64,000 nt of DNA from Escherichia coli. GTDB lineage: Bacteria > Pseudomonadota > Gammaproteobacteria > Enterobacterales > Enterobacteriaceae. The DNA lies in NCBI RefSeq assembly GCF_003334785.1, contig NZ_QOWV01000007.1. One strand, 5' to 3'. Below, piece after piece: positions 4,925 through 52,459 of this stretch (its first letter is position 1; each line of letters begins with the position of its first letter). Made by a program: the position numbers and the translations under genes. The notes beneath the pieces were generated by a model. The model was not told the DNA's origin. It did no database searches and was given only the letters and a program-made list of their open reading frames with translations.

Positions 4925-5084
4925 GGGTTATTCCTTATCTATCTAATAACGTTGAGTTTTCTGGAACCTGTCCCATTGAACTCTCGCCGGAAAGCTCAAT
5001 AAGACAGGTTCTACGTTTAGTTGCCGCGCTTTTATATGCGCTTGATTTACAACATCTTCTGGATAATTTTTACCAGAAAAATCA

Positions 5085-5849: not shown

Positions 5850-5880
5850 GAGTTCCTGTCTTAAGCCACTTGCCGAAGTC

Positions 5881-5897
5881 AATTGGTCTTACCAATT
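5881..5897. promoter_or_regulatory. PdhR operator (perfect palindrome AATTGGT-CTT-ACCAATT) in the pdhR promoter region
   Basis: 17-bp inverted repeat read directly at 5881-5897, ~30 bp upstream of the pdhR start; matches the ATTGGTnnnACCAAT-type PdhR box. Confidence 0.7.
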
Positions 5898-6301
5898 TCA
5901 TGTCTGTGACGCTAAAGTAACAAAGTATTCACCTTATGTCCATACAGGTTTTGATTGAAATCATGAAACTGTGCACATTTTAACAACTTGACATATATAA
6001 CGTTTCAAAGTTGTAACTATGCACAAATGTAGACTTTACGTAGGAAAGGAGTTTTTTAACGATTATTAAACTATAAAAATCCGAATTGAACCGATTCACT
6101 TACCAATTTTGTGATTTTTAATTCAATTAAAACGAATTTAAATTCATTCTACATATTGAGAGGGGTTGAGGCTGAGCTTTACAAACGGTTTCTTTTTAAG
6201 CAACTCATCTTCAACCATGCATAAAGCGGGTGCATTCGCTGCCGCATACCATTATTCTTGATCTGACGGAAGTCTTTTTGTAACAATTCAAACTTCTTTG
6301 A

Positions 6302-6319
6302 TGTAAACAAATTAATACA
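6302..6319. promoter_or_regulatory. candidate TyrR box (TGTAAA-N6-AATACA) upstream of aroP
   Basis: TGTAAACAAATTAATACA matches the TyrR box consensus TGTAAA-N6-TTTACA at 10 of 12 positions; ~70 bp upstream of the aroP start; aroP is a known TyrR target. Confidence 0.4.
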
Positions 6320-6389
6320 ACAAACGGAATTGCAAACTTACACACGCATCACTGCGTAGATCAAAAAAACAACCACCGCACGAGGTTTC

Positions 6390-42311: not shown

Positions 42312-42628
42312 GGCCTGCCTCACTGTTTGACGGAAAAAATGTGTAAAACACATTAACCGTCCGATCTTGCTTAAGCAATTGGCAGCCAGAGACATAAACA
42401 CGGGGTAATAAGAATAAACAGGAGGAAAGGTGAAAAGAAACGATAAAATCCTCCATTACAGAGGATTAAATTGATAATAAATCGGCTGAATCCCACAACT
42501 TACAGCAATTTCTCTATTTTTTTAATTAATCCTAAAATAGAGAGCCCACACATTCAGAATAAAATTCTACATTCAATAAAAAATGCAGAATAAACCAGAC
42601 ATTCATGTCTGACCTATTCTGCAATCAG

Positions 42629-43573
42629 TTAGCGTTTGCAAATTGAGACTAATTGCTCTTCCATCCACTGATGGCCTTTATCGCGCCCGGCAGCTTCATG
42701 CCAGGAGAGATAACAGGTTCTGCTGTTTTGTTTTAACGGCAGCGGTAATACCTGTAATTCTAAGGATTCAGCGAACTCTTCAGCCAGCCAACGCGGCGCA
42801 ATAGCGACCAAATGCGTTTGCGACACCACGCTAAGTACGCTCATCATTGCCATGCCCTGATACGCGATACTGGCTTGCTTATCTACCGTGTCATACCAAG
42901 GTTGACTAAATGACGCGAAACGATCGAGCGAAACCGCCGCATGTTGTTCGTTATAAACATCATGTTTCAGTAACGGGCCCTTAATTGTTGGATGATTTTT
43001 GCTGGCTACCAGCACCATTTCATCTTTAAATAATGGTACGCTGGTAAATTCAGGACGATGGAAGTCTTCATAACTAATCACAAACTCCGTTTCCTGATAA
43101 CGCAGCTGATGTTCAGTGTTCTGATTTAATGAAGACTTGAACATAACATGTATATTTGGCGCAATCTGCTCAATGTGATTATAAATCTGCGAGGTCAGAA
43201 TGCTGTCTAACGGGCTGCAAACACAAAGATGAAATACACGTTCACTGCTCGCGGGTTCAAAACCTGAACCAGGCAATTCATTTTGTACTAGTTGCAATGC
43301 CTGACGAACTGAACCAAAAAGTTGAAATGCGCGAGCAGTCGGTTGAATACCACGGCCATAACGAACAAAAAGCTCGTCATTAAACATCACCTTCAGGCGT
43401 GCAACAGCGTTACTGACCGCAGGTTGCGACATTCCCAGAACATGAGCGGCACGAGTAATGTTTTGCTCCTGCATCACGGCATCGAAAACGGTTAATAAGT
43501 TGAGATCGACCATGCGTAGCTGTGGTTTGCTTAACTCCGCCGTCTCTGGATGATCTGTTTGTACCTCTGGCAT
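42629..43573 (-). CDS. leuO: LysR-family transcriptional regulator LeuO
   Basis: Track ORF 373 aa extends into the AT-rich spacer; known N-terminus [33 protein letters not shown] begins at ATG 43571-43573 (314 aa). Confidence 0.92.
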
Positions 43574-44231
43574 ACTTAACTCCACTGTCACACTTAACTC
43601 CCTTTCCCTTATTGGAATGCAGAGAAATAATCCTGAAGAATATGATTTATCATGCATATAAAATAAGAAAAAGCAAAATGAGTAAAATTCGGAAAACATA
43701 AAGATACGGGTTCTGATAAAAACAGAATCCATTGCCGTGGAATGAGTCATTTACCACAGCATAATAATCCATAATGTTTTTGTTGCGAAAACAATCTAAT
43801 CATAACTACCGCGAATACTCAATCATCTACAAAATGGATTAAATGTGCTTATTTAATAATTAATTTATATATTTAATGCATTAATTCTTAACATTAATTG
43901 ATCAATAATATTCACCAAATCAATATCAAAAAAATCGCAAAAGATATAATTCAATACAAATCATCAGGATAGGTTTTGCAACGCGTGCATTTTGTCCCCT
44001 TTTTCCTCGTTGATTAGATGCAAAAATTTATGCTGAAATATGTCAACCGATGAAAAGCGTCGGTAGTTAAGCAGAAATTAATATCGCTTACTTTAACCAC
44101 CGCAGCACAATTAGCTAATTTTACGGATGCAGAACTCACGCTGGCGGGACGTTTTTATTGCGTCAGGGTTGACATCCGTTTTTGTATCCAGTAACTCTAA
44201 AAGCATATCGCATTCATCTGGAGCTGATTTA

Positions 44232-44318
44232 ATGACTCACATCGTTCGCTTTATCGGTCTACTACTACTAAACGCATCTTCTTTGCGCGGTAGACGAGTG
44301 AGCGGCATCCAGCATTAA
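44232..44318 (+). CDS. leuL: leu operon leader peptide
   Basis: 28 codons [28 protein letters not shown] with four consecutive CTA Leu codons at 44259-44270; sits inside a longer track ORF. Confidence 0.9.
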
Positions 44319-44339
44319 GCCAGCACGCAGTCAAACAAA

Positions 44340-44368
44340 AAACCCGCGCCATTGCGCGGGTTTTTTTA
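44340..44368 (+). terminator. leu attenuator (rho-independent terminator)
   Basis: AACCCGCGCC-ATTG-GCGCGGGTTTTTTT read directly between leuL and leuA. Confidence 0.9.
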
Positions 44369-50346: not shown

Positions 50347-50573
50347 AAAAAAAACCAGCAGGTATAATCTGCTGGCGGGTGATTTTACACCAATACTCAG
50401 TCACACATGATGCAGGCAAGTCAACTTTCAGAATTGCGGTCATCCCACTGCATCAGTCCTTCAAGCATGGTTAATCGTTGTGGGACGCTTAACCAACGCA
50501 ACCAGCACAACTTCGCTGTCGCGGTAAAATAGTGCTGGTAAAACTGACGCATGGGGCACCCCCTTGCTTCATC
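50347..50573 (-). ncRNA. sgrS: SgrS small RNA (glucose-phosphate stress; dual-function sRNA/mRNA)
   Basis: Minus strand reads GATGAAGCAAGGGGGTGCCCCATGCGTCAG...AGTATTGGTGTAAAATCACCCGCCAGCAGATTATACCTGCTGGTTTTTTTT, matching the SgrS sequence as I recall it, including the seed region and 3' terminator; divergent from sgrR. Confidence 0.9.
50421..50552 (-). CDS. sgrT: SgrT, 43-aa peptide encoded within SgrS
   Basis: MRQFYQHYFTATAKLCWLRWLSVPQRLTMLEGLMQWDDRNSES is the C-terminal part of a 99-aa track ORF; the ATG at 50550-50552 lies inside the sgrS 5' region. Confidence 0.85.
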   Translation of the reverse strand: MRQFYQHYFTATAKLCWLRWLSVPQRLTMLEGLMQWDDRNSES

Positions 50574-52296: not shown

Positions 52297-52331
52297 TTGC
52301 TGGTTGATAACAAAATCACTACACTAACGCC

Positions 52332-52424
52332 GTTCTCAACGGGGTGCCACGCGTACGCGTGCGCTGAGAAAATACCCGTCGAACCTGATCCGGATAACGC
52401 CGGCGAAGGGATTTGAGGCTCCTT
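52332..52424 (+). promoter_or_regulatory. sroA: TPP riboswitch (thi box; sroA) in the thiBPQ leader
   Basis: GGGGTGCC...CTGAGA...AACCTGATCCGGATAACGCCGGCGAAGGGA read directly, carrying the conserved THI-element CTGAGA and ACCTGATC-GG-TAATGCC-GCG-AGGGA-like core; 35-130 bp upstream of thiB. Confidence 0.85.
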
Positions 52425-52459
52425 CTCAAGTCCTTTGCCACTCTTTTTTGAGGTGCAAA

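Follow-up and report, generated by a model that had tools for sequence, protein, structure and literature searches.

Why are leuO and the leucine operon leuLABCD, two transcription units that point away from each other, separated by 658 bp of A/T-rich DNA in Escherichia coli? We addressed this question in a window of 64 kb (the whole stretch of DNA that was analysed), a segment of the E. coli chromosome in reverse orientation to MG1655. Our data, taken together with published experiments, make it very probable that the spacer is a shared control region of leuO and leuLABCD, in which an A/T-rich platform for H-NS and StpA silences leuO and anti-silencing sites are embedded. It is an already known H-NS-silenced region with multiple inputs and no new kind of element; our additions are incremental and consist of its exact anatomy, its composition statistics and the family-wide conservation of its length, its composition and six sequence blocks.

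Boundaries, composition and anatomy of the spacer

The annotation gives the gene order ilvI-yabR-leuO-leuL-leuA-leuB. The minus-strand gene leuO extends from 43573 to 42629, and its ATG start codon is the reverse complement of 43571-43573; leuL starts on the plus strand with an ATG at 44232. Hence, the gap 43574-44231 measures exactly 658 bp. An earlier sequence-only reading of this DNA had placed a 658-bp spacer between divergent leuO and leuLABCD, and its boundaries agree with both start codons. It had also described the spacer as the longest non-coding stretch, in line with the RefSeq map of a K-12-like record (leuL-leuO gap, 659 bp; cra-mraZ, 601 bp; aroP-pdhR, 540 bp), and the open reading frames (ORFs) reaching into it are indeed extensions of leuO (373 aa, 42629-43750) and leuL (63 aa, 44127-44318). 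With the spacer as the query, a match was found in 5400 of 5426 complete E. coli genomes, with 99.7% identity to K-12-like strains. Apart from IS1 insertions, no feature is annotated beneath it in the sampled RefSeq E. coli genomes. One IS1 copy, in the urinary isolate Ec-U5, is located at 44023-44030 (8-bp duplication AAAATTTA), within a predicted promoter at 44010-44039, and in a second strain leuO and 497 bp of the spacer are gone by an IS1-mediated deletion with its endpoint at 44071. In the neighbouring ilvI-leuO gap, the 15-aa protein YabR is a recent annotation.

The GC content of the spacer is 0.33, compared to 0.528 for the window. It is practically the lowest-GC 658-bp stretch there (0.014% of such windows are lower, all of them shifted by 1-2 bp), and it contains the lowest-GC 100-mer (0.15; 43849-43948). 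The longest run of A/T only, at 43849-43877, is 29 bp long, compared to 14.4 ± 3.0 bp in composition-matched shuffles (P = 0.0015). Both tracts pointed out in the sequence-only reading were recovered, a 53-nt tract at 43860-43912 (89% A/T) and an A7 run at 43928-43934. An A/T content far above background over hundreds of base pairs, as expected of an H-NS-silenced region, is therefore present. The aroP-pdhR gap of the same window has a GC content of 0.35. Helical phasing of A-tracts at 10-11 bp was detected in the core, 43774-43973, only (P of about 0.003, scan-corrected, with a local-composition null), and periodicity over the whole spacer was marginal (P = 0.07), so that the signal is local to the core; the phased A-tracts predict intrinsic curvature there, on the basis of a periodicity test and not of a full curvature model.

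For the assessment of conservation, LeuO served as the anchor to collect the locus from 80 species of Enterobacteriaceae (about 30 genera), and the limits of each spacer were set at the leuO start on one side and at the leuL leader peptide on the other. Two approaches, in which 24 genera were aligned with MAFFT and 76 non-Escherichia spacers were compared by an alignment-free 10-mer footprint (null maximum, 0.30), gave the same six conserved blocks, which coincide with promoters and known sites. Sequence conservation is restricted to only about 170 bp; these are strongly conserved, a point overlooked in the sequence-only reading, and hence the spacer is not uniformly featureless. Its elements are as follows (window coordinates; strand).

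43574-43608, minus: end of the leuO 5'-UTR with the ribosome-binding site (GGAG 6 nt before the ATG)
43637-43673, minus: putative core of the proximal leuO promoter P2, element TATATGCATG(G/A)TAAATCATATT, with a -10-like CATATT at 43644-43639
43683-43705, minus: RcsB-type box, E. coli TCTTTATGTTTTCCGAA; its core TTTTCCGA at 43696-43689 fits the BglJ-RcsB core wwTTCykA
43706-44101, no strand: central spacer body, A/T-rich, not alignable between genera, of nearly constant length
43761-43789, minus: TTCGCA-17-TATTAT, a candidate for the distal leuO promoter; no other site of the region matches a strict sigma-70 consensus
43849-43912, no strand: extreme A/T core, probable H-NS nucleation zone, with the 29-bp A/T-only run, phased A-tracts and overlapping predicted SlyA boxes
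43908-43926, no strand: core of LeuO binding site I, a 7-N5-7 dyad ATATTCA-CCAAA-TCAATAT that adjoins the A/T core
44010-44039, plus: predicted extra promoter in the leuL direction, TTGATT-18-TGAAAT, from an RNA polymerase (RNAP)-holoenzyme SELEX listing
44102-44121, plus: marbox, the MarA/SoxS/Rob site GCAGCACAATTAGCTAATTT, assigned by conservation and published ChIP-seq
44165-44231, plus: leuLABCD promoter and start of the leader, with the -35 element TTGACA at 44169-44174, a predicted -10 element at 44192-44197 and a predicted start near 44205

Silencing of leuO and inputs into the spacer

The leuL/leuO promoter island (K-12 position 83898, length 426, corresponding to about 43618-44043 of the window) is one of 78 in K-12 and was scored as H-NS-bound in all three ChIP-chip studies (Grainger, Kahramanoglou, and Oshima) (PMC3661553); leuO is flagged for the same three studies (G, K, O) in PMC5797941. 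Since H-NS and StpA repress at least two leuO promoters, the distal P1 and the proximal P2 (PMC5025477, PMC3950696, PMC6698644), leuO is silent in the laboratory, and its de-repression in hns (and stpA) mutants was found in E. coli and in Salmonella (PMC5025477, PMC3950696, PMC6797219). According to published work, BglJ-RcsB, LeuO and SlyA bind in the spacer and counteract this silencing. Published occupancy and silencing thus back the proposal of the sequence-only reading that the A/T tracts mark an H-NS nucleation and silencing region. Neither of the two findings that it had named as speaking against this proposal, a lack of H-NS occupancy and the presence of the two flanking promoters only, is what ChIP-chip and the pair P1/P2 reveal; the experiments that it had called for, among them ChIP of H-NS and the mapping of transcription starts, are largely published already, with an outcome in its favour.

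Where H-NS nucleates can be narrowed down with some caution. The A/T core at 43849-43912 is a probable nucleation site. The canonical high-affinity motif TCGATAAATT, common at nucleation sites though not obligatory, has no match in the spacer at 0-1 mismatch, and its two matches at 2 mismatches (43862 and 43896) correspond to about the chance rate; therefore, the case for H-NS rests on composition, phased A-tracts, and published ChIP. RNAP holoenzyme was found to bind in the spacer in vitro by genomic SELEX (PMC3946193). A strict sigma-70 consensus scan of the spacer gave fewer sites than expected (1, compared to 3.4 in shuffles), and a simple consensus therefore fails to bring out the published promoter-island character, bearing in mind that PlatProm promoter-site density and a strict consensus scan are not comparable methods.

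On the leuO side, the most conserved block of the spacer (43637-43673; 92% conservation) contains an extended -10-like element and is probably the core of P2, with a start near 43632-43637. BglJ-RcsB activates P2 from a site centred 57 bp upstream of the P2 start, and its core motif wwTTCykA has been described (PMC3950696); the position of the RcsB-type box combined with this distance places P2 near 43635. The box itself (43683-43705) is conserved at 59%, with most other genera reading TTTATATATTCCTAA, and we infer from the motif match and the distance that it is the BglJ-RcsB box. The end of the leuO 5'-UTR (43574-43608) is conserved in 82% of the 76 non-Escherichia spacers; no conserved RNA structure was found in this block by alifold (z = -0.05), and, owing to an 18-nt tandem repeat in the 5'-UTR, a GTG preceded by a GGGAG of its own lies in frame 18 nt upstream. 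The pair TTCGCA-17-TATTAT at 43761-43789, listed as a 'constitutive' leuO promoter from RNAP-holoenzyme SELEX (PMC3946193) and without conservation between genera in the 10-mer footprint, is a candidate for the distal promoter, and P1 may be placed there.

Two further inputs meet in or next to the A/T core. The product of leuO is a LysR-type regulator whose gene (minus strand) is transcribed divergently from its pathway operon leuLABCD (plus strand), and the sequence-only reading overlooked that the spacer also belongs to the divergent LysR-type regulator/target regions and contains a LeuO site. A single perfect 7-N5-7 palindrome, ATATTCA-TACTG-TGAATAT, is found in the K-12 casA-cas3 spacer, and its best counterpart here is the dyad at 43908-43926, which fits the statement that LeuO site I at leuO holds a palindrome almost identical to the cas core site (Fragel et al., PMC6698644). 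A dyad-symmetric regulator site is thus present; its half-sites are kept at the same position in all Escherichia loci, with a variable 5-nt centre, and outside Escherichia the palindrome is weakly enriched (23 loci at up to 3 mismatches, 13 expected). LeuO weakly activates its own gene and represses it at a high level (PMC5025477, PMC3950696, PMC6698644), and it also binds a leuLABCD promoter fragment, with 2-isopropylmalate strengthening the binding (PMC12494820). As for SlyA, two overlapping predicted boxes, TTAATGCATTAA (43873-43884) and TTATATATTTAA (43865-43876), are both situated inside the 53-nt tract, and a 344-bp fragment equivalent to 43574-43917 of the window was shifted by SlyA in EMSA (PMC5797941).

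At the other end, the leuL promoter is conserved in two blocks, 44165-44177 (-35 element; 0.89) and 44183-44224 (-10 element, start, and leader; 0.92), and 44165-44231 is invariant between E. coli lineages. Its -10 element and its start near 44205 are derived from a 17-bp spacing and from the RegulonDB start, which we take to be position 83735 of K-12, equal to about 44205. The attenuator of the leucine operon, with its leader peptide containing a run of Leu codons and its terminator/antiterminator, abuts the spacer and lies outside its proper body (Rfam RF00512 Leu_leader, 44218-44367; 145.8 bits at a gathering score of 50). The predicted leuL-direction promoter TTGATT-18-TGAAAT (44010-44039), listed from RNAP-holoenzyme SELEX in PMC3946193, has no conservation between genera in the 10-mer footprint.

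Another feature overlooked in the sequence-only reading is the MarA/SoxS/Rob site. A conserved 16-mer, (C)AGCACAATWAGCTAA, has a near-maximal information content inside and zero on either side; the 18-mer 44102-44119 occurs in 86% of the non-Escherichia spacers with zero conservation on its flanks, and the marbox is sharply delimited in 71 of 80 loci. Indeed, a MarA ChIP-seq site, 'gcacaattagctaat', was assigned to leuL<>leuO in ETEC, with strong in vitro binding (PMC5684230), and MarA, Rob, and SoxS were located at this site by ChIP-seq in Salmonella (PMC10268841). In 50 loci, the marbox is 67-68 bp away from the leuL -35 element, and a second class of 9 loci has 56-59 bp; these two classes differ by one helical turn, and thus the helical phase to the leuL promoter is preserved. 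Marboxes of class I are in reverse orientation 53-73 bp upstream and those of class II in forward orientation 30-42 bp upstream (PMC10268841), whereas the one here is in forward orientation, centred about 93.5 bp upstream of the predicted leuL start and more than 460 bp from the leuO promoters; with respect to that predicted start, its geometry is that of neither class. No transcriptional effect of the leuL<>leuO marbox is reported in PMC5684230 or PMC10268841, although few elements of the spacer are as well conserved. As far as we found, its deep conservation and phase-locked spacing are apparently undescribed in the literature searched; together, they point to a genuine function, with the leuL promoter as its most likely target.

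Two other assignments were considered at this position. The 16-mer differs from the Lrp SELEX consensus by 2 mismatches (the known ilvIH site, our positive control, by 1), and its assignment as an Lrp site was displaced by the published MarA/SoxS/Rob ChIP-seq match; Lrp-like sites are enriched in the spacer (4, compared to 0.4 expected), and Lrp may bind the 16-mer besides MarA/SoxS/Rob. A divergent minus-strand promoter near 44073, driven by the marbox, was set aside because the marbox flanks are not conserved.

Finally, transcription itself is an input. A supercoiling promoter relay has been defined at ilvIH-leuO-leuABCD in Salmonella, where induction of a tetA cassette upstream raised leuO transcription more than 10-fold (PMC4264507, PMC10981669) and H-NS with NusG blocks invading transcription (PMC4264507, PMC10981669, PMC6797219). 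The supercoiling-sensitive relay suspected from the A/T tracts is thus borne out at the orthologous locus, by evidence from Salmonella that was obtained in large part in leu-500/topA backgrounds. The closely spaced and suitably oriented units ilvIH, leuO, and leuABCD that such a relay involves are found in the window and in the 80 species.

In our model, the long A/T-rich body would be the platform on which H-NS, together with StpA, nucleates and spreads, which would silence the leuO promoters in the leuO-proximal 200 bp and spare leuL at the far end, whose promoter is strong and under the control of an attenuator. Into this platform, defined by composition, sequence-specific sites would be set whose factors lift or modulate silencing: the RcsB-type box beside the proximal leuO promoter may serve BglJ-RcsB in E. 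coli, the LeuO dyad that borders the A/T core may serve auto-regulation and probably a 2-isopropylmalate-responsive link to leuLABCD, the SlyA boxes in the A/T core may let SlyA act against silencing, and the MarA/SoxS/Rob site upstream of the leuL promoter may add a further input. Transcription of the neighbouring units would feed in via negative supercoiling, by the promoter relay. Experimentally published parts of this picture are H-NS occupancy and silencing, the binding of BglJ-RcsB, LeuO, SlyA, and MarA, and, in Salmonella, transcription-driven de-silencing (PMC3661553, PMC5025477, PMC3950696, PMC6698644, PMC5797941, PMC5684230, PMC10981669).

Length, composition and alternative explanations

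Throughout the 80 species, the spacer is 549-753 bp long (median, 632) with a GC content of 0.31-0.44 (median, 0.344), compared to 0.48 for leuO and 0.54 for leuA. In the other genera, the mean GC content has its trough (0.24) 250-300 bp from the leuO ATG, the same distance as in E. coli. The sequence of the central body is not kept: the 10-mer footprint gave no conserved block above the null in 43706-44101, except for a marginal 10-mer. Within E. coli, the whole spacer diverges 2-3 times faster than the flanking genes; two strains were compared, and in one of them most of the excess falls into the central sub-blocks. Nevertheless, spacer length has a coefficient of variation (CV) of 0.038, compared to 0.133 for the leuO-ilvI gap next to it in these genomes, with the reservation that this one gap is the whole control and that the 80 species are not independent in phylogeny. 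The P2 anchor and the marbox (the block at 44102) are 417-454 bp apart (CV, 0.027; 57 loci). These data suggest that composition and length, rather than the sequence itself, are under selection, as would be expected from a protein that reads composition, such as H-NS. We infer that the constant length of the spacer matters physically.

A more far-reaching idea is that the spacer is a ruler, with about 437 ± 12 bp of A/T-rich, sequence-free DNA selected between the leuO promoter and the marbox/leuL promoter and with the marbox as an ancient stress input into leucine biosynthesis or leuO de-silencing. We regard this as tentative and rather doubtful. Such a ruler might be needed if a certain size of the H-NS filament or bridge, or a certain distance of supercoil diffusion, is required to silence leuO beside a very active operon while allowing the relay.

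Could the spacer instead be an ordinary divergent LysR-type region that became long and A/T-rich as a neutral by-product, because selection on intergenic DNA is weak? In line with this, leuO codes for a LysR-type regulator and points away from its pathway operon, a LeuO dyad is present, and a pathway intermediate enhances LeuO binding (PMC12494820); intergenic DNA also has a generally higher A/T content, exemplified by the aroP-pdhR gap. However, the locus differs from such a region in its layout. Typical LysR-type divergent regions are 100-200 bp long with overlapping promoters; here, the spacer measures 658 bp, and the LeuO dyad is separated from each start codon by more than 300 bp (335 bp on the leuO side, 306 bp on the leuL side), so that this is not a compact spacer with a regulator site overlapping both promoters. 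Neutral by-products also fit poorly with a length less variable than that of the adjacent gap, though the central sequence is saturated with substitutions, and with a GC trough whose distance from leuO is the same in the other genera. Moreover, direct published experiments show H-NS-dependent silencing. We therefore consider this explanation improbable.

A remnant of horizontally acquired DNA is a still less likely origin of the A/T-rich spacer, and in our opinion hardly credible. Its composition is strongly atypical for the window, the leuL/leuO island overlaps a GIST 'genomic island' and one predicted foreign gene, and almost all promoter islands are said to accompany acquired genes (PMC3661553). 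On the other hand, gene order, spacer length, and low GC content are common to the 80 species in about 30 genera, and the composition must accordingly be ancient and maintained rather than a recent import. Furthermore, the promoter, marbox, and RcsB blocks stand at fixed positions, leuO and leuABCD are core genes, and the spacer itself is found in nearly every complete E. coli genome (5400/5426).

That an unannotated small protein or small RNA accounts for the spacer length is just as improbable and was rejected: the spacer does hold six ORFs of 22-41 codons, binds RNAP holoenzyme in vitro, has extra predicted promoters and is next to a gap in which YabR was annotated lately, but no Shine-Dalgarno sequence precedes any of these ORFs, the region is unalignable between genera, the frame of the one ORF that overlaps a conserved block is broken by indels between genera, an Rfam search of the spacer returned nothing but the Leu leader and noise even at E ≤ 1, there is no terminator-like site inside and no consensus structure in the leuO-proximal block, and nothing is annotated there in the sampled RefSeq genomes. 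The view of the sequence-only reading that no plausible ORF is present holds for these short frames, which have no ribosome-binding site and lie in a region not conserved between genera.

Related systems and significance

The shared, H-NS-silenced control region that we favour has its closest relative in the relay locus of Salmonella enterica (Wu laboratory; Figueroa-Bossi and Bossi), which is orthologous, has the same gene order and shares the silencing of leuO by H-NS. Its spacers are 645-655 bp long in two loci, with a GC content of about 0.33, and are thus near that of E. coli; the leuO-proximal promoter block, the RcsB-type box, the marbox, and the leuL promoter are common to both, whereas the central ~400 bp, including the A/T core, are not alignable. 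The evidence is also divided between the two organisms: activation by BglJ-RcsB and LeuO sites I and II were defined in E. coli, the relay and the cis-spreading filament in Salmonella.

Within E. coli, the bgl, proU, and cas regions are, like the spacer, of low GC content, bound by H-NS and opened by the same anti-silencers (LeuO, BglJ-RcsB or SlyA); the LeuO core palindrome is common to the cas spacer and the leuO-leuL spacer. Insertions of IS elements into the regulatory region, as observed here, are known to activate bgl (PMC9678765). However, bgl, proU, and cas are accessory or cryptic and variably present, and the leuO-leuL spacer is core and family-wide. In contrast to those regions, it lies between two genes of which leuO alone is silenced, and leuL has a strong biosynthetic promoter.

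Long divergent spacers with RNAP-holoenzyme peaks are also known from csgD-csgB (755 bp), lrhA-alaA (920 bp), and nanC-fimB (1456 bp) (Shimada et al., PMC3946193), all of which, like this one, precede master regulators with many inputs. Compared to these, the leuO-leuL spacer has fewer mapped inputs, and one of its flanks is an attenuator-controlled amino-acid operon. SoxS binds 294 bp upstream of csgD in a position that is neither class I nor class II (PMC10268841), similar to the marbox here, where the 20-mer 44102-44121 fits the marbox of mar/sox/rob promoters in its sequence and neither class in its geometry to leuL.

LeuO is a master antagonist of H-NS that controls CRISPR-Cas, porins, efflux, and virulence genes, and the switch that holds leuO off is therefore biologically important; it has been under study since the 1990s. 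The constancy of length and composition and the phase-locked marbox are modest additions for work on H-NS platforms. In sum, this H-NS platform of the core genome has retained its length and composition throughout a bacterial family without conservation of its sequence, which makes the leuO-leuL spacer a natural test bed for models of indirect read-out and of filament length.

Conserved sites in the leuO-leuL spacer

Cross-genus comparison of the 658-bp spacer between leuO and leuL (43574-44231) identified the following element as the one with the sharpest conservation boundaries.

44102-44121, MarA/SoxS/Rob binding site (marbox)

This marbox is already known through ChIP-seq in ETEC and Salmonella, and no regulatory output has been reported for it. 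Across genera, its distance to the -35 element of leuL is either 67-68 bp or 56-59 bp, two classes that differ by one helical turn, and the position and orientation of the site at 44102-44121 match neither of the marbox classes. The RcsB-type box on the minus strand (43683-43705), assigned by motif match and distance, varies at position 43690. The K-12-like lineage has a G there (TTCCGAA), two other examined E. coli lineages carry a base different from that of the window, and most other genera have a T at the equivalent position (TTCCTAA), which brings the motif nearer than TTCCGAA to the RcsAB-box half-site. The published BglJ-RcsB core wwTTCykA accommodates either base, G or T.

IS1 events and presence of the spacer across genomes

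Two natural IS1 events were found in the spacer.

44023-44030, simple IS1 insertion in strain Ec-U5, with the 8-bp target duplication AAAATTTA
44071, endpoint of an IS1-mediated deletion in FDAARGOS_943, with loss of leuO together with 497 bp of spacer sequence

The leuL promoter and the marbox were left untouched by the deletion. With the spacer as the query, 26 of the 5426 complete E. coli genomes searched had no match at all, and another 21 of the 5426 had a partial match alone (<80% of the query). Plasmid-labelled records hold 3 of the 5404 matching places of this chromosomal spacer; possible explanations are F-prime-type captures and artefacts of assembly.

Other gaps and elements of the window

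The gap between ilvI and leuO is a second A/T-rich gap (GC 0.32), and its A/T-only run of 16 bp at 42515-42530 is the second longest within the window. It also contains two features, the first of which is annotated by RefSeq in K-12-like records.

about 42430-42474, 15-codon coding sequence, protein YabR
42555-42569, Lrp site TAGAATTTTATTCTG, one mismatch to the consensus

The window has a second low-GC divergent spacer, which includes a 100-mer with a GC content of ≤0.26.

5850-6389, pdhR-aroP divergent spacer, 540 bp, GC 0.35

The K-12 "promoter island" listing also includes this gap, and its Salmonella orthologue has a RamA ChIP-seq site.

Elements matched by Rfam elsewhere in the window

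4927-5040, tp2, near pdhR-aceE (103 bits)
16912-16981, STnc40, near secA-mutT (84 bits)
22628-22717, PssrA, ftsA-ftsZ junction (105 bits)
50347-50573, SgrS
52330-52429, TPP riboswitch
16315-16508, two REP-type elements (naRNA4)
61180-61500, four further REP-type elements (naRNA4), even 85-bp period, araA-araD gap

The matches to PssrA, tp2, and STnc40 all exceed their own gathering thresholds; SgrS and the TPP riboswitch were expected. The araA-araD gap measures 454 bp in the window compared to 284 bp in the K-12-like record, and therefore, the strain is not K-12 itself.

Duplicated start region of leuO

The ribosome-binding site and the start of leuO are doubled by an 18-nt tandem repeat.

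43589-43602, with 43564-43599, minus strand, tandem repeat of the leuO ribosome-binding site and start

The copy GGGAGTTAAGT-GTG precedes GGAGTTAAGT-ATG by 18 nt and shares its reading frame. The upstream GTG/ATG is retained in most genera; Raoultella has CTG at its position, and Silvania has GTA. The tandem-repeat stretch is more conserved than the N terminus of LeuO. A start at the upstream GTG would lengthen LeuO by 6 residues.
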